From: Arenicellales bacterium
Lineage (GTDB): Bacteria > Pseudomonadota > Gammaproteobacteria > Arenicellales > JAJDZL01
Direction: 5' to 3'
DNA length: 64,000 bases
NCBI GenBank assembly: GCA_965202855.1
Contig: CBDBBP010000001.1
Span: 1,125,649-1,189,648 of the forward strand
Shown: positions 7,580-35,496 of the stretch, one piece after another
Numbering within the stretch: the first letter of the stretch is position 1
How the letters are laid out: every line of letters starts with the position of its first letter
Position numbers and translations under genes: made by a program
The notes under the pieces: model-generated
Databases searched by the model: none
Told to the model about the DNA's origin: nothing
What the model saw: the letters and a program-made list of their open reading frames with translations, nothing else

Positions 7580-7705
7580 ATGATCGGGAGCACCAAAGTG
7601 ACCCTTGTGTCGTGAACACCCGGGGTGGACCTGTGCCCCGATCACTTGCCACGATGGAGGCCCAGTAGGATGTTTGTGCCGGAGAGCACCAGTACAGGGG
7701 AGGAT
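7580..7705 (+). ncRNA. candidate IS110 bridge-RNA-like non-coding module (copy 2)
   Basis: Conserved with 27427-27545 (GxTCGGGAGCACC...TGGACxTGTGCCCCGA...GTTTGTGCC...GAGCACC). Contains TGACCCT (7599-7605), GGGGTGGAC (7622-7630) and GTAGGATGT (7665-7673), which match the element's left flank, right flank (antisense) and right end. Confidence 0.45.
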
Positions 7706-7758
7706 CAGCATTGTGGCAGCCCGATATTTTTTAAACGACAACTGTCAGGAGGAATGAC

Positions 7759-9012
7759 ATGGAATCATTGGACTATTTTGTAGGCGTGGACTGGGGTTCG
7801 AAAGCGCACCAGCTGTGCATCGTGGATCGGACCGGTTCGATCTGTGCACAGCGCAGTTTCGAGCACAGCGGGCGCGGCCTGAACCACATGGCGACTTGGA
7901 TTTTGGACGTCACCGAGTGCCCGCGACAGCAGCTGGGCATTGCCATTGAAACCCCGCGCGGGCCGGTGGTCGAGAGTCTGTTGGGGGCGGCCTTCAAGGT
8001 CTATTCGATCCATCCGAAACAGCTGGACCGGCTGCGCGATCGCTTCAGTTTGGCCGGGGCCAAGGATGACCGGCTCGATGCCCAGGTGCTGGCCGAATCG
8101 GTGCGATTGGACCGCCACTTGCTTCGAGAGCAGCAAGTGTTCTGCAGCGAACTGGTGCAGTTGCGCGACTGCAGCCGGCTCGATGCTCAACTGAAACAGG
8201 AAAAAGTGCGTCTGATCAACCAGATGCGGGAAGTGTTGTGGAGCTATTACCCACAGTTTATCGAGCTCTACCGCGAGCTGAGCCACCCCTGGGTGCTACA
8301 GCTGTGGAAATTGGCGTCGACGCCGCAAAAGGCAAAACGACTGCGAATCAGCAGCGTGACTCGAATCCTAAAACAGCATCAGATCCGATGCATCGATGCC
8401 GTCTCTGTCAAGAAACTTCTCAGCGAACCGTCGGTGAAGGTGACCGCAGGTACCACCCAAGGTGCCGTGTTTCAACTCGAAAGCATCATCGATCGCTTGC
8501 GCCTGGTGGTACGCCAGCTCCATCGAACCCGTCATGAAATGCAACGGCTGATCAAAGCCTATGACAAGATGCTGCGAGAAGCAGAGGAGCCCGAAGATAA
8601 AATGCGCCAGCGCGACGTGGAAATCTTAGCTTCGCTGCCTGGTGTCGGCACTGTCGTCCTCGCCACGCTGCTGGCAGAAGTTCCCGATCTCCTGCAGCAA
8701 AGAGATTATAACGCGCTGCGAGCCTACTCTGGGGTGGCGCCGGTGACCAAACGTTCCGGCAAATCCCTGGTGGTGCTCCGTCGTCGATCCGTCAACACGC
8801 AGTTGCAGAACGCCATCTATCATTGGGCTCGAATCGCCTGTCAGCATGATGCGGTCAGCAAAACCAAATACGCGGCTCTTCGAGACAGGGGGCACCGACA
8901 TGCCAGAGCTTTGCGAGGTGTGGCCGATCGGCTGCTCAAGGTGGCCTGCACAATGTTGGAAAATCAAAAAATTTTCGATCCTGATTATCCGACATTCAAA
9001 CAGGATGCATGA
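7759..9012 (+). CDS. IS110-family transposase, full length (417 aa)
   Basis: FVGVDWGSKAHQLCIVD N-terminal DEDD motif. SLPGVGTVVLATLLAEVPD and YSGVAPVTKRSGKS C-terminal motifs. AGGAGG SD 7 nt upstream. Confidence 0.9.
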   Translation: MESLDYFVGVDWGSKAHQLCIVDRTGSICAQRSFEHSGRGLNHMATWILDVTECPRQQLGIAIETPRGPVVESLLGAAFKVYSIHPKQLDRLRDRFSLAGAKDDRLDAQVLAESVRLDRHLLREQQVFCSELVQLRDCSRLDAQLKQEKVRLINQMREVLWSYYPQFIELYRELSHPWVLQLWKLASTPQKAKRLRISSVTRILKQHQIRCIDAVSVKKLLSEPSVKVTAGTTQGAVFQLESIIDRLRLVVRQLHRTRHEMQRLIKAYDKMLREAEEPEDKMRQRDVEILASLPGVGTVVLATLLAEVPDLLQQRDYNALRAYSGVAPVTKRSGKSLVVLRRRSVNTQLQNAIYHWARIACQHDAVSKTKYAALRDRGHRHARALRGVADRLLKVACTMLENQKIFDPDYPTFKQDA

Positions 9013-9049
9013 CAGATCAGAAGCAGTGACTGCAAAGTCTCTGAGTCGA

Positions 9050-18772: not shown

Positions 18773-19828
18773 TTAAATGGCTTGTTCAACAAAAGCGTTT
18801 TCTAGTTCGTGTTGGTAAGCAAAGATACTGGGAGTTCCACCGGTGTGGATAAACATCACATTTTCGTCCGGTGCCGCTCGTTGGACATAATCAAGAAAAG
18901 CCGTTGCAGTTTTGCCCGTGTAGCTCGGATCCAGGACTAGTGCTTCTTGTTGTGCGCAAACTACAATTGTTTGCCACACAATGCTAGATGCCACACCATA
19001 GCCGGGTGCAAAAGATTCGTCCGATAAAATTATGTCGTCATCTGGAATTTCTAGAGGAACTCCAAGCAATTCGGCGATTTCTTGGCAGCGACTTTGAATT
19101 CGAGGTCTCTGCAATTCCTTTTTACGTCGTACGCATACGCCGACCACTTTGATACTTGAGCCTATTGCGCGCAGCCCAAAAAGAAGGCCTGCATGCGTGT
19201 TGCCACTGCCTGAACCAACGAAAATCACATCAATGTTGATTTGTTTCTGTCGAAGCTGCTGATCAATTTCGTACGCTGCAAGAACATAGCCTAGAGCGCC
19301 AAGTGGCTTGTGTCCAGGCGCTAAGGGGATGATATACGGAACACGACCTTGGTTTTTCAGCCGATTTGCAAGGACTCGAAGTCGATTGTCCGCTTCGGCT
19401 TCATTCTCGCCTTCGCTGAAATAGTGCAATTTTGCCCCAAACAATCGGTTTAATAGCACATTGCCTGAAGTCTTGTAATCTTTCGATGGGTTGGAAACTC
19501 TAGATTCAAGTTGAATGTGGCATTGCATGCCCAATCGTGCGGCATAGGCTGCAGTCAGCCGCACAAAGTTTGACTGCACTGCACCTGTGATTAAAACAGT
19601 GTCGGCTTTCTTTTCGATTGCCTCGCCAAAATAGAATTCCAACTGCCGTACTTTGTTGCCGCCGAAGCCAAGATGATTGCAGTCATCCCGCTTGACGTAC
19701 AACTGAGTGCCATTGTATTGCTTGGAAAGATTGCCGAGAAATTCAATCGACGTTGGCTCGTCGTGAAATACACAGCGAGGAAAAGCAAGCAGCTGATTTA
19801 GAACTGATTTTGGATCGACGCTGTTCAC
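18773..19828 (-). CDS. PLP-dependent D-cysteine desulfhydrase / ACC deaminase family enzyme
   Basis: LYVKRDDCNHLGFGGNKVRQLEFY (PLP lysine motif), GAVQSNFVRLTAAYAARLG, GSGSGNTHAGL. Confidence 0.8.
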   Translation of the reverse strand: MNSVDPKSVLNQLLAFPRCVFHDEPTSIEFLGNLSKQYNGTQLYVKRDDCNHLGFGGNKVRQLEFYFGEAIEKKADTVLITGAVQSNFVRLTAAYAARLGMQCHIQLESRVSNPSKDYKTSGNVLLNRLFGAKLHYFSEGENEAEADNRLRVLANRLKNQGRVPYIIPLAPGHKPLGALGYVLAAYEIDQQLRQKQINIDVIFVGSGSGNTHAGLLFGLRAIGSSIKVVGVCVRRKKELQRPRIQSRCQEIAELLGVPLEIPDDDIILSDESFAPGYGVASSIVWQTIVVCAQQEALVLDPSYTGKTATAFLDYVQRAAPDENVMFIHTGGTPSIFAYQHELENAFVEQAI

Positions 19829-27011: not shown

Positions 27012-27345
27012 CCTATACCATTTAGAGATAGCCAAATTGTCGCAATCATTGTCGACAATGATTGCGACAATTTGAAGTTGCTGGCAAGCGGTTGGGAGCG
27101 CCAACCAGATGATGTATCTTTGAATGCCGAGTATGGACTTGTGCTTCGACCGCCGACCGTCATGAAGATTTCCTGTAGTAAGTTTGTGTCGTTGAGCACC
27201 CGTATAGGTACCGAAACAACATGGCGACAGCCAGCACTTCACCATGATCATGGGTTTGAGGAGGATTGATCAAGGAACACAGACGATTTGGTTGATGGGA
27301 ATCAACTGGGGACGGCGACATCACCAGGCATATGTGATGGATGCC
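27012..27345 (+). mobile_element. truncated older IS110 copy: left end plus first ~26 transposase codons
   Basis: Alignable base-by-base, with many substitutions, to 27346-27688, including ...GGTTTGAGGAGG...TGGTTGATGGGAATCAACTGGGGACGGCGACATCACCAGGCATATGTGATGGATGCC. Confidence 0.65.
27033..27074. repeat. perfect 42-bp palindrome (21-bp arms, no spacer)
   Basis: CAAATTGTCGCAATCATTGTC|GACAATGATTGCGACAATTTG, verified by reverse-complementing. The homologous position in the neighbouring copy (about 27365-27412, centre GTTAAC) is an imperfect palindrome of different sequence. Confidence 0.95.
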
Positions 27346-27426
27346 AATATCATTAGAGATAGAGATCGCCGAATAGCCGTAGTATTTGTTAACGATTATT
27401 ACGACGATCTTCAGTTGCTGGCAGGC

Positions 27427-27545
27427 GGTCGGGAGCACCAACTAGGTAATGTATCTTTGAATACCGAAAATGGACTTGTGCCCCGACCGCCGACCGCCAC
27501 GAAAAATTCCTGTAGTAAGTTTGTGCCGTTGAGCACCCGTATAGG
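27427..27545 (+). ncRNA. candidate IS110 bridge-RNA-like non-coding module (copy 3)
   Basis: Homologous to 7580-7705. The variable positions AAATGGACTT (27468-27477) and GTAGTAAGT (27512-27520) match the orphan junction at 30368-30382. Confidence 0.4.
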
Positions 27546-27608
27546 AACTGAATTGAACATGGCGACAGCCAGCATTTGACCATTGTAATAGGTTTGAGGA
27601 GGATGAAG

Positions 27609-28889
27609 ATGATGGAATCGAAGACGACTTGGTTGATGGGAATTGACTGGGGACGGCAACATCACCAGGCATGCGTGATGGATGCCGATGGCAAGGTGGC
27701 CGACAATCAAAGTTTCGTTCACAGCGGTGACGGTCTGACGCAGATGGCGCAATGGTGCCTGCAGCTCACCGCCAGCGAGCCGAGTGCGGTGCGTGTCGGC
27801 ATTGAGACCCCGCACGGAGCAGTGGTGACGACTTTACTGAATTACGGATTCGAAGTGTATAGCATCAATCCTTTGCAGTCGAATCGATTTCGAGACCGAC
27901 ATTCACCGGCCGGGGCCAAGGATGACCGCCGCGACGCCTGGGTGCTGGCGGATGCGCTGCGAACTGATCTGAGCGCGTTTCGTCAGCTGTCGGCAAAAGA
28001 CGAGCAGCAGTCGCGTTTATTTCAATTGCTGCGTGATTACAGCCAGTTGGTCGACATGCGAATTCAGTTAAGCAATCGGATCGGCGATTTATGGTGTGAA
28101 TACTATCCGCAATTTCTGCAGGTGAGCAACACTTTGACTGCGGGATGGGCGCTGGCGCTGTGGAAGCGGGTGCCGACTCCACAGAAAGCGCAGCGCATTC
28201 ACCTTGGCAGTGTTGAAAAACTGCTGCGGCAGCATCGGGTGCGCGCGAAAAGTGCCGAGCAGATCCTTGACATTTTGCGTCAGCCGGCATTATTGGTATC
28301 GGCGGCTGAGGTCGACACTAAGACTGAATCGGTCAAAATTTGGGTGAAGATGCTCGAACAAATCCAACGAGATATCAAGCTCATCGAAAAGAAAATGGAC
28401 CGCTGTCTGCAGCAGCTGGATCAATCCGACGTGGCGGCCCTGGCGAGTGAGCCGCAGTCGCAGTCGGAAACCTCCAGACCCAGCGATATTGCCATCGTAC
28501 AGTCCATGCCGGGAGTCGGTCGCATCGTCGCCGTCACCTTGGTGGCAAAAGCCGGTGCTGCGCTGCGAGATCGGAATCATGGCGCCTTGCGCTGTCAGTG
28601 TGGCGTGGCTCCGGTGACGCAGCGCTCGGGCAAGAGCTATCGGGTGCAACGGCGACGGGCGGCTGATCGCCAGTTATGCGAAGCCGCCTATCACTGGGCG
28701 CGGGTCGCCATCCAGCACGATCCGATCAGTCGTCTCAAATACCGGAGCTTGCGCCAGAAGGGACATCGTCACGCACGAGCCCTGCGATGCGTGGCCGACC
28801 GTCTGCTGCTGGTGCTCTGTGCAATGCTGCGTGACGGCACCTTGTTTCAGAAAAGCACGGAGCAGGAGGCCGCTCTGCGCATCGCTTGA
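27609..28889 (+). CDS. IS110-family transposase, full length
   Basis: WLMGIDWGRQHHQACVMD, SMPGVGRIVAVTLVAKAG, QCGVAPVTQRSGKS. GAGGAGG SD at 27595-27601. Start could be 27603, 27609 or 27612. Confidence 0.9.
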   Translation: MMESKTTWLMGIDWGRQHHQACVMDADGKVADNQSFVHSGDGLTQMAQWCLQLTASEPSAVRVGIETPHGAVVTTLLNYGFEVYSINPLQSNRFRDRHSPAGAKDDRRDAWVLADALRTDLSAFRQLSAKDEQQSRLFQLLRDYSQLVDMRIQLSNRIGDLWCEYYPQFLQVSNTLTAGWALALWKRVPTPQKAQRIHLGSVEKLLRQHRVRAKSAEQILDILRQPALLVSAAEVDTKTESVKIWVKMLEQIQRDIKLIEKKMDRCLQQLDQSDVAALASEPQSQSETSRPSDIAIVQSMPGVGRIVAVTLVAKAGAALRDRNHGALRCQCGVAPVTQRSGKSYRVQRRRAADRQLCEAAYHWARVAIQHDPISRLKYRSLRQKGHRHARALRCVADRLLLVLCAMLRDGTLFQKSTEQEAALRIA

Positions 28890-29307
28890 AATCCAGGCTG
28901 ACGGCTGCCGAGATTGTGAAAGTTTTTATCAACGGGTCTGGATGATGTTCATTCTAAATCTAGAATCTATTGTTATTCTTGTTTATTTACAGATACGAAC
29001 TTTGAGAACTCATCGAATATTAAAATCCTGTCACAGTGTTTACTGGTTAGAGCCCTGCAGCGGTAACTTGCTTCGATCATATGACGCACGATCTGCTGAC
29101 AGCCTCGCGCGTAAGCATCAGCATAGGCACGACGAGTCGCTCGCTTGCAGTTTCACGCTATTAAGGTCTGCGCCCCAGCTCACAGCCGCAAAACAGGAAA
29201 AATATTGGAACTGCTCACCCGCCTTAAATGGTGAAAGGCGAGTTGTTGGAACTGTTGGTTGATAGGATTTTATTTGGATTGGCCGAACCTTGCCATGGCC
29301 TTGCCGT

Positions 29308-29771
29308 TCAAGGTGTTTTGCATGGCGCCGAACGAGCTGTAGCCTTGAGCAGATAGTTTAAAATTCCGCAGTAGGCTTGGGTGTGATCGGCGTTTCGATA
29401 GGTGCCTGAGATTTTTTGCCGCAGCTGGGCCATGCGGATGTCGCGCGGCTCGACTATGCCGATATCGGCATAGTTACATCGCTTCAAGGAATGCCAGCAG
29501 TCAAACCCCCTTCGGCACATCATGCGGACGGGTTCGATCCATCGCCTCTTTCTTTAATCTGCAGGTCTGCGTCTGCAACAGTCAGTCCGATCAGTTCTGA
29601 GACGCGGACACTGGTTTGCAGCAGCATGGCCCGGTCGCGTCGCCCGAAGCGTGTGGCGATATCCGGCGCGGCTGCCAGCGCCGCACATTCATCGCGCTCC
29701 AGAAAATCCACAATCCGCCGCTCAAAGCGCTTGGGCGGAAGCAAACTCTCAAACACTAACGTCTCTACCAA
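29308..29771 (-). pseudogene. tyrosine recombinase (phage-integrase family) remnant, frameshifted with an internal deletion
   Basis: FLERDECAALAAAPDIATRFGRRDRAMLLQTSVRVSELIGLTVADADL (R-box region), then after a frame change HSLKRCNYADIGIVEPRDIRMAQLRQKISGTYRNADH (degenerate HxLRH...LGH...Y region). Confidence 0.6.
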
Positions 29772-29783
29772 AACGGGGTAAGG

Positions 29784-30119
29784 CTACTCGTAGCGGTAAC
29801 GATATCGTCCCGGTGCCTCGCGCATCGTTCGCAGGTACGGCGGATCGGCGTAAATCAATTCACTGCCGTCGAATTCAAACTCCAACAGATAGTTATGGCA
29901 GCAGCCGTGCACCAATTCCACCGCATAATCGCAGCGAAACTATTCAATGGCCGCCGCATCCACATCAATGCCAATGTTGCGCTGCGCTGGCGGCTTGCGC
30001 TTCATAATGGCACCGCCGCCCAGATGAGATTCAATGTAAACGCTATGCACCGGCATCAGCGCAATGATGGCCTGACACAGCCCTGCCGTGGCTTTGGATC
30101 CCAAATATGCGTTGCCCAT
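29784..30119 (-). pseudogene. D12-class (Dam-like) N6-adenine DNA methyltransferase remnant with in-frame TAG
   Basis: Own translation: MGNAYLGSKATAGLCQAIIALMPVHSVYIESHLGGGAIMK...IE*FRCDY...LIYADPPYLR. Y-x-GSK, FxGxG-like and DPPY motifs. Internal stop at 29940-29942. Truncated at 29784-29786. Confidence 0.65.
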
Positions 30120-30355
30120 CTATGATTGGCGTAAGTGTTGGGGTGAACGATGCGCGTACTATAGCTCCTCGGCACTTTAATGTTAAGGTCAACGGCGCGT
30201 AGCTAAAATGGCTTCATCAAACGAAACACAACCCGGTCGCAATGTCTGCGTTCGTTTAGTCAGCAAAGATGCTCAGCCTGTTAACACTGAATCAGATGGG
30301 GCGAGTCGTTACAAAATATTTTAAAAATCAATTGGCAAAATTATCTACACGCAGA

Positions 30356-30386
30356 GCTTGACAAATGGTAGTAAGTCCATTTGCTG
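30356..30386 (+). repeat. orphan IS110 right-end/flank junction motif, copy C
   Basis: GCTTGACAAATGGTAG (identical to 9056-9071) followed by TAAGTCCATTTGCTG. Sits exactly where the DUF4338 reading frame is cut. Confidence 0.8.
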
Positions 30387-30436: not shown

Positions 30437-30859
30437 ATGACGACTCAGCTGGCGCTGCTCGGATTCGGTGCCGCTTGGAAGACCGCGCCGCACGACCGCT
30501 TCATCGGCTGGTCGCCCGAAGGTCGACAATGCAACCAGCAAATGGTAACGAACAATGCCCGCTTTCTGATTCTGCCGTGGATTCGCATTCCAAATCTGGC
30601 TTCGCGGATTCTGGCATGCTGCCAACGACGGCTGCCCGAGGACTGGCAGCAACGTTACGCCATCCGTCCGGTACTGCTTGAGACCTTCTGTGAAATTCCT
30701 CGTTTCCGCGGCAATTGCTATCAGGCGGCCAACTGGATCAAAGTCAGCCAGCCCCAGGGACGCGGCAAACTCGATGTTCGAAATGTACGTGCGCTGCCGA
30801 TCAAGGATATCTGGCTCAGGCCGCTTCAGCGAAACTGGAAGGTGATCTTGAATTCTTGA
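30437..30859 (+). pseudogene. DUF4338-domain protein, C-terminal fragment only
   Basis: FIGWSPEGRQCNQQMVTNNARFLILPWIRIPNLASRIL...VLLETFCEIPRFRGNCYQAANWIKVSQPQGRGKLD matches the DUF4338 C-terminal block (LLETFVD..RF.GTCYRAANW..VG.T.GRG). N-terminal half absent. Confidence 0.6.
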
Positions 30860-31211
30860 ATGGATGCAGACTGTTCGACCCCAGACGCTCTGCCCCGCAA
30901 AATTCGCTCCAAATCAAATACCGCACTGACCGAGTCTCGCTGCTGCAAACCAAGGATAACCCGCTATTGCAATTTATAATGGACCCATCCTCAACATCAT
31001 AGTGTGGTGGTCAACGCAGGTTTGAGAGAATACCTCTATCACTACACAAGTGAAAACTTACTCTTGAGTAGGTTATTCCCAAATTTTACAATCCAAAGTC
31101 AGGAACAATATAGCGTGGGGTTGTCCTGACTAAGTCGGTGCCAACTTATATTAATTGGCATAACATAAATTGAAAGATCAATATGACTTTTCCAAGTAGA
31201 GACGCTCCAAT

Positions 31212-31626
31212 GTGGCTACTGCAGTTATTGCACTCAGATTTATGATATTTATAGAGAACAGTTTAAAAGACCAAGAAAACTTCAATTTGCGCTGGAATTC
31301 GAAATTCTTCAAAACATCGTTAAGTTATGTTCCTCCTGAACCGGGATTGTATGCATTTGGGCGTAAAATATTCTATCTAGAACTCGAAGAAAAACGGGAA
31401 TATGTTTATTAAAGGACAAGCAGATAATCTCAAAAGTAAACTAAAGGACTATAGCCTGCTTAGTGAAACCAATAGCAAACTAAGAAATTATTTTTACGAT
31501 TTCTACAACGAAGTCAGATGCTGGTACTGTCCTCTAACTGAAATAAAGAATGCTGAAAGAAAAAAACTGGAAGTAGAGTTGATCCAGTTCTTCAAACCGA
31601 AGTTTAACACAAAAAGTAAAAGGTAA
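31212..31626 (+). pseudogene. GIY-YIG-type nuclease split by a +1 frameshift (ORFs 31212..31412 and 31402..31626)
   Basis: PGLYAFG ... REYVY|(I)KGQADNLKSKL ... KLEVELIQFFKPKFNTK correspond to GIY, YIG-x-A-x-NL-x-x-R(K)L and E-x-x-LI-x-x-x-x-P-x-x-N. Frames join if one T is removed in GTTTATTAAAGG (about 31404-31410). May instead be a sequencing error. Confidence 0.55.
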
Positions 31627-31631
31627 GTTTT

Positions 31632-33251
31632 ATGTCCCAAAGTTTTGAAAACAACATTGATGAAATTATTGATGTAGTTTTAAATGAAGAAGAGAGGGAA
31701 CGAATAGCGTTACAAGTTTTGCTTGACAAATTAGGTAAGCGAAAAAGTCATCTGACTGCAGTATCGGCGAAAATGGGTACAACCAATTCTTACCTAACTA
31801 CGGTACCACTCAAATGGATTGCGTCAAACGTATTGTACGCAAAAGATTTACCGGTCTTTAAGGAGCACATTACCGAAGCTGACGGTCGAATTGAAATTAA
31901 TAAAGTTACTTTAGATTTTATTCAGCAACGTGAACCCGACAGTCGACGCCAACTTCCTATGGCTTTGTATTTGGCAACGAGAAAGTATCACAAATTTGGG
32001 CCGTTGATTATTGTCGCTTACCAAGATTGGGTATATAACAAACTCGCAGACGAATGGGGTTATGATGGTAAGGCTGGATCTGATTCATTGAATTTAACGC
32101 CAATTGACAGTAGCATGTTTCTTGTCGACTTAGATGTTGAGCAGACAAAGTACTTTGCTCTTGATGGACAACATCGCCTAATGGCTATTAAGGGATTAGC
32201 ATCATTGATAGATGGTCGATTAGAAGCAAAAAGGAAAGATGGAACGTCAATACCCAAAAAAGCACTAACTAGCGACGATATTGAAAATTTCTATCTGGAA
32301 AACGAGACTCTTGGTCTGAATGTCAACGATTTTCAAAATTTACTCAACGACACTATGGGTATTGAAATTATTCCAGCCGTTCAAGGAGGTGAGACACGCG
32401 ATGAAGCAATTTCCCGGTTGCGGAACATATTTGTTGACATTAACGAAAATGCCAAGAAACTTGAAAAAGGCGAACTAATATTACTCTCCGAAAATGATGG
32501 ATATCAAATTGTTGCTCGTACCATTATTACGCTGAATGACTTGCTTATTAATCGTGTAAGCGTCGAGAGAAAGAGCCTTACTGAGGCATCCAATGAATAC
32601 ACTACACTTAAAAATGTTTTTGAAATTTGTAAGAATTATCTTGGGAAGCAGGCTGAATTTGAAAAATGGGAACAACCAATTCTAAATCTAAAAGAACTTG
32701 GTTTTCTGAGACCAGAAGACGAGGAAGTTGAGGCTGCGATTAAAAGAATGGACGAGTATTTTAAGGCACTAAAGAAAATACCTTCACACAATGATATGGT
32801 TCAGGGAACCGATGTGCAAGAACTAAGATCTAGAAAGGGGAGAGACAACATTTTATTTTGGCCTTTTGCGCAGCTTGCTTTGGCCGAGGCGATAGCGGAC
32901 CTTCAATTTAAAAAACAAAGTTCTCTCGATGTCATCGTTCGTAAGATAAAAAGTTCTGAAGAAAAAGGTCAATTGAAAATGACAGACTTAAAAGCACCTT
33001 GGTTTGGAATTGTGTGTGATGCAAATAACAAACTCCGAACAACCATAAAACAACGAGAGTTGTGTAAATGTATGTTTACATATCTTCTAGGAGATGGTTT
33101 GCCGGATGAAGGGCGTGAAAAACTTCGAAGAAGATTCTTTAACGCAAGAAAGATTACACGGATTGGAGATATTGACGAGCAGGCTTATGATTTGTCAGGA
33201 AATTTGAGTTCATTCAATGAAAATTTCCATCTTCCAGATCCATGGCATTAG
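31632..33251 (+). CDS. DGQHR-domain protein (DndB-like, ParB/Srx-fold), 539 aa
   Basis: Literal DGQHR motif in YFALDGQHRLMAIKGL, and FVDINENAKKL downstream as in DndB-family proteins. Starts 5 nt after the GIY-YIG stop. AT-rich like its partner. Confidence 0.8.
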   Translation: MSQSFENNIDEIIDVVLNEEERERIALQVLLDKLGKRKSHLTAVSAKMGTTNSYLTTVPLKWIASNVLYAKDLPVFKEHITEADGRIEINKVTLDFIQQREPDSRRQLPMALYLATRKYHKFGPLIIVAYQDWVYNKLADEWGYDGKAGSDSLNLTPIDSSMFLVDLDVEQTKYFALDGQHRLMAIKGLASLIDGRLEAKRKDGTSIPKKALTSDDIENFYLENETLGLNVNDFQNLLNDTMGIEIIPAVQGGETRDEAISRLRNIFVDINENAKKLEKGELILLSENDGYQIVARTIITLNDLLINRVSVERKSLTEASNEYTTLKNVFEICKNYLGKQAEFEKWEQPILNLKELGFLRPEDEEVEAAIKRMDEYFKALKKIPSHNDMVQGTDVQELRSRKGRDNILFWPFAQLALAEAIADLQFKKQSSLDVIVRKIKSSEEKGQLKMTDLKAPWFGIVCDANNKLRTTIKQRELCKCMFTYLLGDGLPDEGREKLRRRFFNARKITRIGDIDEQAYDLSGNLSSFNENFHLPDPWH

Positions 33252-33407
33252 TCAAGATACAAATTTTAGCATGAACTCTGATTGTCCATATATCAAGGAG
33301 AACATTCGCTCAACGAGTCTATTTGGCGGTGCGATTTTTACATCTATGGGCGATATCAGAAGAGCTACAAAAAAGCTCCGCATTAATCTAAATGACTTGC
33401 GTGCACG

Positions 33408-33442
33408 AGGGGTGGACATCCTACCATTTGTCGAGCCGGATT
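33408..33442 (-). repeat. orphan IS110 right-end/flank junction motif, copy B (inverted)
   Basis: AGGGGTGGACATCCTACCATTTGTCGAGCCGGATT is the reverse complement of 9050-9084 with one mismatch. No transposase sequence adjoins it. Confidence 0.9.
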
Positions 33443-33992
33443 GCGTGCCTGCGGCTTCGCCGTCATTGTTCCCGAATTGTTATGCAAAAAGTTCATAAGT
33501 TAAATTATCGGAGTCAAATGTCATTTGATTTTGCAATAACACACAGACAACCTTAAGCAGCTGCATGGCAACACTCCGCAAAGGGCGATGCATTGAAATT
33601 TTCACACCACCGTTAAGATTTTCGACGCTTCAGCGTTGTGTACCTTCTCGAACACCGACGGGCTGCGATGGAGAAATCGACAACTATCATTGCCGGTCTC
33701 GATGATCTCACAGAGTGCGTCGGACGACTTAGCACCGCCGTCGTCGATTTCTCGTCCTGAAAGACCTGATTCCACTCGCCGGAGTTCAGTGCACCCTCGA
33801 ATTAATATCAGCGCTCGACTCATATTGATGGCTTTTTCGAGTTACAAGGAACGAGCGCAAAAGTGTTCCGAAAATCTATTGGCGCTGTTGATCCGACTGG
33901 AAGTTACGGAGCCGGTGGAATAGCTGCAACAACGGGCGGAAGATTTCATCGAGTGGTATCTGCAATCTGGGCAAAAGGAACTGAAAGCAGGT

Positions 33993-34334
33993 TTGATGAA
34001 GTGGTTCATAACGTCGTTGGAGATTGCCGGTGACGAAGATTTTCATCGCCGGATTGAAGGGGTCGAAGACACGGGAATGTTAGTTGAGAATATCAGACAA
34101 TGGGCTGTCGATTACAAAGAAGCTGGTTTGAAGCAAGGCAAGCGCGAGCTGCTGTTGCGACAAATTGAGACGAAGTATGGAATTGGAACTGAGGCGCACG
34201 AACAATTGACAGAAAACTTGCGGCGGCACACCAAGACAGAAGCTCTGGATCGATTTGGAGAATGGATCATTGAGTGTGAATCAGCTGAGGAACTGCTCCA
34301 ACGCATTCGTGCCAGTTCCAACGGCATCAGCTGA
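33993..34334 (+). pseudogene. Rpn/YhgA-like (PD-(D/E)XK transposase-like) C-terminal DUF4351 fragment
   Basis: GLKQGKRELLLRQIETKYGIGTEAHEQLTENLRRHTKTEALDRFGEWIIECESAEELLQRI fits the DUF4351 pattern (G..eG...LLlRqL..rfG......i..L....L..l.e.ll...s..eL). No nuclease domain upstream, only broken frames at 33640-33990. Confidence 0.5.
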
Positions 34335-35496
34335 GTTCATCGAATATTGGGCCGTAAATATGGAAATTCCAGTTGAGAATAATAAAGTGATACGCAGCTG
34401 ATGCGAGACTAGCATTTTTGCCTGTTGAAAACTCTTGTAAGAAGATACGAAATGACAATGGCATCAAGCCAGAAGAAATAGTTTCGACCAAGTTCCAATA
34501 ACGAGGAATTTTGTACCTACATGCCCGCTTTAGTCCTATCGCGGCGACATGAAATGGGAAATGTCTTCAAATAATGTTAGGGAAACTGCGCTCCGCAGTG
34601 AATAGTAACGACTCTGCGGAACTGAAGTTTGCTGCGTCAAGCGGCTTTGAAATCAGCTGATGCCTTCGCACTAACAAAATTCCTTACCTCCCTCTTATGT
34701 GACGTTGCATACAGGTACAAAATCATTAGGCTAGTGTGAGCTGGCTCATGTTCCAATTGAAGAGCCCGACAACAGTCGCGATACAGCATGTCCATCAGGG
34801 CCTTCGAATCGGTTGCGATGGGTTCAATCGTTGAGGGTGATTTTGAATTGCCACTACTATGGTTCATTCCATAGACTCTATGGACCGGTTGATGATCGCA
34901 ATCTAAGGAAAAGTCAGAAAATTACACCATTTTAGGACATATTATTTTTTATTATCAGTATCTTATATAAATCAAATTTATGGTTTTGGATTCCGAAACT
35001 CGAAGAAAATATTTCTACGCAGAATCTAGCCCAGTTGTAGTCCAATCAAGAGTGATATTTTTTCATTAACTGACGGTTTGTTTGAATCAAGTCTGTTCTG
35101 CATTCATCGAACATCCCCGGTAGCGAATTAGCAAAATATGTTTGCAATTTCTTTATAATTTAGGATTAAGTGCAATCTGAACAATTATGAATGTGGACGT
35201 TGAATTTACAGTCGTTTTTAAAATTCGGGTTTAATATCTCAAAAATTACAACGATTCAGAAATTAAATTACATCAAAGAATTCATTAATAGAAAGATTTC
35301 TTATCAATTAGTAGAGTTTGAGTTAATTGCCAACTTATATAAGAACCGATTGGTGTGACGGCTGTAAAGGTCAGGACAAGACAGCCTCCATGTATATTTG
35401 GCATCTCAAGTCCTGGTTCCGCAGTGTGCGTATCTGTTATCGATTGAAATGCTTGTGTTTCGTCGCTCGCGTAAGTTTGTTTAGCGAGTTAAGGCT

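Follow-up and report, generated by a model that had tools for sequence, protein, structure and literature searches.

DndI and SspE, the restriction partners of the dndBCDE and sspABCD clusters, sense phosphorothioate (PT) modification through a DUF262 DGQQR NTPase fused to a DUF1524 HNH nuclease, and the D-G-Q-x-R motif drives both NTP hydrolysis and PT sensing in these proteins (PMC11662687). DndB-like proteins bind ATP and GTP (bioRxiv 10.1101/2025.10.10.680097). Most dnd clusters are without the classical DndFGH restriction partner; small standalone URI/GIY-YIG nucleases lie at Dnd core borders, sometimes on the opposite strand, and have been proposed to act as back-up suicide effectors (PMC10853773). 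Growth-arresting effectors are described elsewhere: CapRel is a toxSAS anti-phage toxin (PMC9712102), and in PANGU the DNA-clamping protein Pag1A controls a toxSAS by activating it (bioRxiv 10.64898/2026.04.06.716658). Here we analyse a locus that touches on all of these systems, a DGQHR-domain gene and its immediate neighbours in an Arenicellales bacterium (GCA_965202855.1, contig CBDBBP010000001.1). The window, the 64,000-nt stretch of this contig that was studied, supplies the coordinates used throughout. An original prediction for this DNA had proposed a self-contained two-gene defence module pairing a GIY-YIG nuclease with a DGQHR protein. Our analysis indicates that the locus is likely the remnant of a three-gene operon, encoding a GIY-YIG nuclease, a long DGQHR protein and a CapRel-like RelA/SpoT-type (RSH) protein, that is found beside dnd clusters in relatives.

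One intact gene and two broken partners

The one intact open reading frame (ORF) of the locus lies on the forward strand at 31632–33251 (1,620 nt) and encodes a long DndB paralogue of 539 aa with a DGQHR domain. We noted YFALDGQHRLMAIKGL at residue 174, DGQHR at residues 178–182 and FVDINENAKKL from residue 267, and the protein matches both TIGR03187 (102.7 bits, cut-off 58.85) and the Pfam DndB family PF14072 (52.3 bits, cut-off 29.1), so that the DGQHR call of the original prediction holds. It is not DndB proper: it scores 31.1 bits against the TIGR03233 DndB equivalog, whose cut-off is 328, 27.5 bits over 92 residues only against the PADLOC DndB model, and 18.6 bits against a canonical-DndB profile built from the loci of the same relatives. 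Comparison with canonical DndB by hhalign gave a probability of 95% with 18% identity over residues 261–499, that is, the C-terminal half only. The protein is predicted to have an N-terminal helix ahead of a DGQHR/ParB-like domain; its C-terminal domain is helical and shows distant homology to the C-terminal half of DndB. GmrSD_N/DUF262 (PF03235) reaches 11.7 bits, under its cut-off of 33.2, and no HNH/DUF1524 domain was matched in the protein by Pfam, NCBIfam or PADLOC. The AlphaFold2 model has a predicted local distance difference test (pLDDT) score of 83.6; a Foldseek search of the whole model against the PDB returned nothing significant (best E = 0.82), a model of the DGQHR domain (residues 38–312, predicted TM-score 0.82) gave BrxU as its top match without significance (E = 0.59, TM 0.27), and the family profile had zero matches among PDB sequences. 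The 320 homologues detected are nearly all of about 540 aa and align end to end, and all family-invariant residues are retained in the window's protein.

Upstream of this gene, a GIY-YIG (URI) nuclease gene survives as a pseudogene (31242–31626, forward strand). A +1 frameshift at about 31409–31414, between YVY and KGQADNL, breaks it into ORFs 31212–31412 and 31402–31626 in different frames, and tblastn by intact orthologues matches both. The two genes had been described as co-directional and separated by 5 nt; the spacing is correct (GTTTT, from the end of the GIY-YIG frames to the DGQHR ATG), but the first gene is not intact. Likewise, the GIY-YIG call stands through the orthologues and not through the window's own repaired product. 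The frame-repaired product has no Pfam match, the PF01541 cut-off not being reached, so the GIY-YIG identity had to come from intact orthologues, two of which (L001 and L082) pass PF01541 at 29.8 bits against 22.6; the repaired product itself shows a weak UvrC N-terminal match (25 bits, E = 5.9e-6). Alignment with intact orthologues revealed that the catalytic Arg of NLxRRL has become Lys (KSKL) and the following His has become Tyr. These replaced residues lie at +10 (Arg) and +14 (His) from the Tyr of YIG; Glu and Asn are retained. We presume the catalytic roles of these residues by analogy with R27 and H31 of I-TevI. All six alleles of the species cluster (the window, L081, L085, L086, L087 and L088) carry this frameshift, with further lesions in the form of a 2-bp deletion in L081 and a 5′ truncation in L086–L088. 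A programmed frameshift or a sequencing error was considered and rejected, given the shift in six assemblies, the extra independent lesions and the lost catalytic residues.

Downstream of the DGQHR gene lies a third gene that the original prediction overlooked. A 45-codon 5′ stump of an RSH gene (33271–33407, forward strand) begins with an ATG 20 nt past the DGQHR stop, a spacing equal to that in L001 and L082, and its frame reads MNSDCPYIKEN...FTSMGDIRRATKKLRINLNDLRA. The stump is 46% identical to RSH N-termini, matches the RSH profile at positions 16–42, and aligns by blastp with the RSH N-terminus of L083 (E = 1e-8). Homology stops at about 33407. The surviving codons 1–45 lie upstream of the catalytic domain, and the RelA_SpoT synthetase domain (G-loop, ExQxRT), which is present in relatives, is gone from the window copy. 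Because only the DGQHR gene is intact and both of its partners are dead, the window copy is non-functional as a defence module and cannot act as a nuclease- or toxSAS-based defence.

A conserved operon beside dnd clusters in relatives

We clustered the neighbouring ORFs of 80 genomic loci, comprising the 24 closest, which are proteobacterial and other metagenome-assembled genomes (MAGs), many from sponge-associated lineages, and 56 cyanobacterial ones. An RSH gene lies directly downstream of the DGQHR gene in 18 of the 24 closest loci, mostly with a gap of −10 nt, that is, an overlap (−10 in 9 of the 18). A GIY-YIG gene of about 130 aa lies upstream of the DGQHR gene in 10 of the 24, at a gap of 5–17 nt. 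The synteny of the GIY-YIG and DGQHR genes is thus borne out in relatives, their adjacency being seen in L001–L004, L016, L017, L019–L021, L082 and L083, in the last of which the GIY-YIG gene is intact but uncalled. At other loci the position upstream of the DGQHR gene is occupied by unannotated genes of 222, 99, 188, 570 and 565 aa (L005 7333–8001, L006/L009 ~7627–8017, L012 7109–7675, L018 4328–7959). PADLOC gave no match for the 222-, 570- and 565-aa genes, and the 222-aa one is also without a Pfam match; these replacement genes may be alternative effectors.

The family is strongly associated with PT modification genes. DndC lies within 8 kb in 68 of the 80 loci, and at least one of DndC, DndD and DndE lies within 8 kb in 19 of the 24 closest. 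Outside the species cluster of the window, the three closest relatives (P0002, P0004 and P0005; 56–60% identity) have an operon ordered (GIY-YIG), DGQHR, RSH that is convergent with dndB-dndC-dndD-dndE-Aminotran_5, in which Aminotran_5 is the cysteine desulfurase. Distances between DGQHR proteins correlate with those between RSH proteins (Mantel r 0.91–0.93) and between DndC proteins (0.86), and both families track DndC at about 0.85. In relatives, the operon adjoins and is co-inherited with a complete dndBCDE and cysteine-desulfurase PT cluster. Mean p-distances across L001–L024 and L082–L084 are 0.51 for DGQHR, 0.57 for RSH and 0.36 for DndC; the faster divergence of DGQHR and RSH relative to DndC is the pattern expected of sensor and effector versus core enzymes.

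Twelve of the 24 closest loci also encode a canonical DndB (~380 aa, range 365–387; PF14072 448 bits), which makes the long DGQHR protein a second DndB paralogue and not the cluster's DndB. That the protein might be a displaced member of a dnd cluster, as the original prediction had considered, is accordingly true of the family but not of the protein as the cluster's own DndB. The long paralogue shares with DndB the DGQHR motif and domain (TIGR03187, PF14072), the FVDxN motif, the distant C-terminal homology and the dnd-cluster location. It differs in being about 160 aa longer, in its low equivalog score and in its low identity over the aligned half; moreover, canonical DndB sits as the first gene of dndBCDE, whereas the long paralogue is grouped with RSH, and in some cases GIY-YIG, in a convergent operon of its own.

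In the cyanobacterial loci, the DGQHR gene (~8001–9520) is divergent from dndC in 52 of 56 cases, and its other side carries a module of PbeA (HKD-helicase), PbeC (CxC ABC ATPase) and a small protein, often with a LexA-like gene; 19 of the 56 also have canonical DndB. Recurrent neighbour clusters across more than 80 loci comprise dnd, pbe, RSH, GIY-YIG, HNH, methyltransferase, MFS transporter and LexA-like genes, and none is TGT-like.

The RSH proteins of relatives are about 320 aa long and match PF04607 at 54–58 bits. When the family profile was compared with the PDB, the best match was CapRel(SJ46) (7ztb/9erv, E = 6e-20), beginning at the N-terminus; CapRel ranked over RelP and RelQ, and FaRel2 was also detected. 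We confirmed that 7ZTB is CapRel, the tRNA-pyrophosphorylating anti-phage toxSAS. The GY G-loop (GYR) and ExQxRT (E.Q.R) motifs are invariant in the family, which also scores 108 bits against the PADLOC candidate PDC-S33. A C-terminal extension of about 110 aa is unmatched to the CapRel antitoxin/sensor domain. We also considered whether it could be an acidic DNA mimic, as in PANGU, but with a pI of 4.6–9.6 across the family it is not consistently acidic. The RSH family comprises 158 matches, and a member lies on the same contig as the DGQHR homologue for at least 33 of the closest 50.

Order of gene loss and selection on the orphan gene

At 90% identity, the window's exact protein clusters with four others, and same-species alleles allow the decay to be ordered. 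L081 and L085 share the window's arrangement at 96–98% nucleotide identity. L086, L087 and L088 (97% nucleotide identity) carry an intact 329-aa RSH gene after a DGQHR gene of the same cluster of at least 90% identity, and their collinearity with the window ends at 33407–33424. As the GIY-YIG frameshift is common to all six alleles and RSH is intact in L086–L088, the GIY-YIG gene died first, and an IS110-family element later cut RSH after codon 45 in the sub-lineage of the window. No DndA-like gene was found within 600 nt after RSH in L086, so the dnd cluster may already have been non-adjacent in the species.

The DGQHR gene has followed a different course. Between the RSH-intact and RSH-less groups it shows 16 synonymous and 17 nonsynonymous changes (dS 0.048, omega 0.28, P ~5e-4); in the RSH-less trio the corresponding counts are 7.5 and 8 (P 0.01–0.025). 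By comparison with its dS of 4.8%, the GIY-YIG remnant has diverged by 3.3–3.9% and the RSH stump by 5.1%. All six alleles, which differ by up to 2%, keep the DGQHR ORF open, and the pseudogene flanks diverge 1.7–2.5 times faster. Collectively, the orphan DGQHR gene is under purifying selection, and the GIY-YIG and RSH remnants drift approximately neutrally. The comparison of the window with L081 alone yields 12 changes only (dN/dS, P = 0.09), and the flanks of these two are equally similar. In a relative-rate test the window lineage had more private amino-acid changes in 16 of 16 comparisons, 10 of them significant, which amounts to a modest acceleration.

A possible sensor–effector mechanism

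By analogy with described systems, we tentatively propose a sensor–effector mechanism for the intact module, an assignment that is somewhat less probable than not. The ParB-fold DGQHR protein, acting as an NTPase, would sit on DNA and read its state, whether as PT marks that are present or absent or as damage inflicted by phage. It would control the downstream toxSAS, which would in turn arrest growth through tRNA pyrophosphorylation or alarmone synthesis in a form of abortive infection. The standalone GIY-YIG nuclease might serve as an optional second, back-up effector. The loss of the effectors and retention of the DGQHR gene in the window fits a role for the DGQHR protein as controller or neutraliser. 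Rather doubtful is the fuller proposal, in which the intact operon would be a PT-linked immune module whose ParB-fold NTPase reads PT or DNA integrity and licenses the toxSAS, and the orphan would have been kept for an independent role as neutraliser or regulator.

DndI and SspE offer the best functional analogy for the GIY-YIG and DGQHR pair, as they too couple a ParB-superfamily D-G-Q-x-R NTPase to a nuclease and are attached to a PT-modification cluster (PMC11662687). In the module described here, however, the nuclease is a separate small GIY-YIG protein and not a fused HNH domain, the toxSAS is the main partner, and the DGQHR family profile recovers neither DndI (9JFL) nor SspE (7DRS). The position of the GIY-YIG gene matches that of the URI nucleases at Dnd borders, and the text of the survey describing them mentions neither a second DndB paralogue nor a RelA/SpoT-type partner (PMC10853773).

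On the side of the effector, the RSH protein, a predicted toxSAS, resembles CapRel(SJ46) and other toxSAS proteins (FaRel2, PhRel) in its best PDB match, its GY G-loop and ExQxRT motifs and the presence of an extra C-terminal region, as in fused CapRel. It differs in that its C-terminal ~110 aa are unlike the CapRel antitoxin/sensor domain and in that it is always preceded by the DGQHR gene. PANGU type I, which consists of a nucleoid-associated protein (NAP) clamp, Pag1A, and the GRel toxSAS Pag1B, similarly joins a DNA-binding protein that reports the state of the genome to a toxSAS with a C-terminal partner-binding domain (bioRxiv 10.64898/2026.04.06.716658). The putative sensor of our module has a DGQHR/ParB fold, as predicted from profiles, and is not a NAP, its RSH C-terminus is not consistently acidic, and the dnd linkage is specific to it.

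The PT-linked module PbeABCD (CxC-ABC ATPase and HKD-helicase) is found together with the long DGQHR gene at most of the cyanobacterial loci and at several proteobacterial ones (PbeA 842 bits, PbeC 76 bits), but it is made of different proteins, none of which is in the window. DpdB, which is encoded in dpd clusters alongside the TGT-like DpdA and DpdC, does not fit: nothing TGT-like is among the recurrent neighbours, and no DpdB model matched, although the library may hold none. As the original prediction maintained, no named defence system fits the module. In the open-access literature we came across no account of a DndB paralogue with a RelA/SpoT gene as its partner, and searches of it for PDC-S33, for toxSAS with DndB and for DndB-like with RelA/SpoT proteins gave nothing relevant. 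The intact module, a long DndB paralogue with a CapRel-like toxSAS and with or without GIY-YIG, appears undescribed in that literature.

Weighing the explanations

Several observations weigh against a dnd-linked operon with a DGQHR sensor as the origin of this locus. Five of the 24 closest loci (L012, L018, L020, L021 and L023) have the DGQHR gene without nearby dnd genes, and RSH occurs without nearby dnd genes in L012, L018, L021 and apparently L086, so dependence on PT is either not obligatory or acts in trans. All 56 cyanobacterial loci (L025–L080, 34–36% identity) have neither RSH nor GIY-YIG. The ParB fold of the DGQHR protein is assigned by profile hidden Markov models and is structurally unconfirmed, because Foldseek of the whole model and of the domain gave nothing significant, and the sensor–effector model draws on gene order and analogy. 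In addition, the term remnant may understate the present role of the DGQHR gene, because purifying selection persists on the orphan, and the relative-rate test reveals just the modest acceleration noted above.

Among the rival explanations, the original idea that GIY-YIG and DGQHR form a self-contained two-gene module needing no other partners is highly improbable. The pair is indeed adjacent, with 5–17-nt spacing, in the window and about a dozen relatives, and fusion of a ParB-like NTPase to a nuclease is an arrangement known to work, as DndI and SspE show (PMC11662687). However, the nuclease is frameshifted in all six alleles of the species cluster with its catalytic Arg and His lost, 14 of the 24 closest loci and 56 of 56 cyanobacterial loci lack GIY-YIG, and the constant partner in a dnd-linked family is RSH (18 of 24), whose truncated gene is still in the window. 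It is unlikely, though less so, that the DGQHR protein is a displaced member and not a relic, working in trans with a dnd, pbe or ssp system elsewhere in the genome as a regulator or sensor like DndB, a DNA-binding transcriptional regulator (PMC4507180). The almost constant location of the family at dnd or pbe clusters would suit this role, as would an intact gene that retains every family-invariant residue and remains under purifying selection even within the RSH-less trio. Set against it are the relatives' dnd clusters, which own a canonical DndB and so do not need the paralogue as a regulator, and the results of our searches for partner genes. Consistent with the original prediction, tblastn and profile searches of all six frames detected no remnants of DndA, DndB, DndC, DndD, DndE, PbeA or PbeC in the 64-kb window, and the sister genome is free of dnd genes for 10 kb on each side. 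The 120 best DndC matches listed include none from the 4.38-Mb sister contig, but all of them are at least 70% identical to the query, so that a divergent copy could be missed. None of the 158 RSH-family matches lies on that contig.

A toxin–antitoxin-like pairing of DGQHR with RSH, in which the orphan neutraliser has been kept, for example, against related incoming toxins, is rather improbable. RSH is nearest to CapRel and also matches FaRel2, both toxSAS proteins of toxin–antitoxin systems (PMC9712102), and the −10-nt overlap in 9 of 18 loci indicates tight translational coupling. Such a pair could lose its genes in the sequence seen here, in which the toxin was cut while its partner persisted under constraint, and the pairing would explain why DGQHR outlived RSH. 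On the other hand, the RSH protein has its own ~110-aa C-terminal extension, like fused CapRel, and so may be self-inhibited, and in PANGU, the one studied pair of a DNA-binding protein and a toxSAS, the partner is an activator and not an antitoxin. Moreover, no toxSAS antitoxin is known to be a DGQHR or ParB-fold protein, and the literature searches turned up none. Equally small is the chance that the whole locus is dead and the DGQHR ORF is its last piece still without a disabling mutation. Such decay would agree with two pseudogene neighbours, a region full of insertion sequences and gene fragments, the excess of private amino-acid changes on the window lineage and the non-significant comparison of the window with L081 alone. 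It is difficult to reconcile with a 1,620-nt ORF at 38% GC that stays open in six alleles, with an omega of about 0.3 that is significant both between groups and inside the RSH-less trio, or with the slower divergence of this gene than of its pseudogene flanks. The remnant of a dnd-linked three-gene operon, with the DGQHR gene still constrained, remains the likely account of the locus.

Genomic surroundings

The locus differs sharply in composition from its surroundings. The module (31000–33407) has a GC content of 37.5%, compared with 53% at 27–31 kb and 46% for the whole window; the AT-richness reported earlier and the counts of 19 G+C in the 60 nt at 31441–31500 and 40 at 8041–8100, inside an IS110, are exact. 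A promoter and terminator scan found 7 promoters where 7.2 were expected, and so no enrichment, and no terminators.

IS110 scars lie on either side, as had been described. The left one (30356–30371, forward strand) is a 16-nt exact copy of 9056–9071 (blastn-short E = 1.7e-4), derived from the right-terminal sequence of the IS110 copy at 7759–9084. It forms the end of a 3.36-kb insertion (27012–30371) that has no counterpart in the sister genome L081, with which collinearity starts again at 30372. Within the insertion are an IS110-family transposase gene (27576–28889, forward strand; PF01548 118 bits, PF02371 57 bits), which is not present at the L081 locus, a phage-integrase fragment (29520–29771) and methylase-like fragments (29784–30119). 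The right remnant is an IS110 terminus adjoining the RSH stump (33408–33490, reverse strand), with a 35-nt match of 97% (33408–33442) to 9050–9084; this source lies 38–72 nt beyond the stop of the IS110 transposase at 7759–9012, and a weaker likeness runs about 80 nt further. At the insertion point, the native RSH sequence (L086 ~2790–2812) is CGGGTGGTCAATTCCTACAG, and the IS110 terminus that replaces it is AGGGGTGGACATCCTACCAT. When a 2-nt gap is allowed, the two agree at about 14 of 17 positions (window 33407–33426, 9066–9085), which could be chance, a microhomology junction or an IS110 target preference.

The patch of mobile and defence-type debris described around the pair is partly upheld. 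A DruA/DUF4338-domain gene fragment (30437–30859, forward strand) matches PF14236 at 91.7 bits over profile positions 99–227 of 297. By contrast, the DUF4351-like fragment near the module (18.5 bits, cut-off 25) and the integrase fragment (16.6 bits, cut-off 27.1) fall under their Pfam cut-offs, and the ‘Dam-like’ methylase fragments have no Pfam match, although a DPPY motif is visible. In L084 (3543–5261) the DruA/DUF4338 domain is fused to DDE_Tnp_1 within a 572-aa gene, and the fragment in the window is for this reason more likely transposase-associated than a Druantia remnant.

Further rearrangements were seen nearby. L081 carries a 5.8-kb OpuAC/ABC-transporter block between two copies of a 384-bp repeat (12428–12811 and 18597–18980) whose ORF is DUF4351-like. 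Only one copy is present in the window (34067–34450), consistent with deletion through recombination between repeats; in L085 this region harbours an IS66 transposase. The window also contains two direct-repeat pairs with units of about 300 bp at 82% identity, one in tandem just upstream of and into the IS110 ORF (27023–27345/27360–27686) and the other 3.3 kb apart (41472–41774/45113–45392).

Implications

For the window itself, the result is mainly corrective and evolutionary, in that one living gene stands between two dead ones. It also provides a natural experiment, as the effectors were lost in a definite order while selection maintained the DGQHR gene, a hint as to which component can be dispensed with. 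What the comparison adds is a compact gene set that recurs alongside dndBCDE-iscS clusters and is co-inherited with them, chiefly in MAGs of marine and sponge-associated origin. The intact module is most plausibly a sensor–effector accessory of PT systems and is a candidate substitute for DndFGH in dnd clusters. If this is true, it would tie PT modification to toxSAS effectors for the first time, coupling modification of the DNA backbone to abortive infection.

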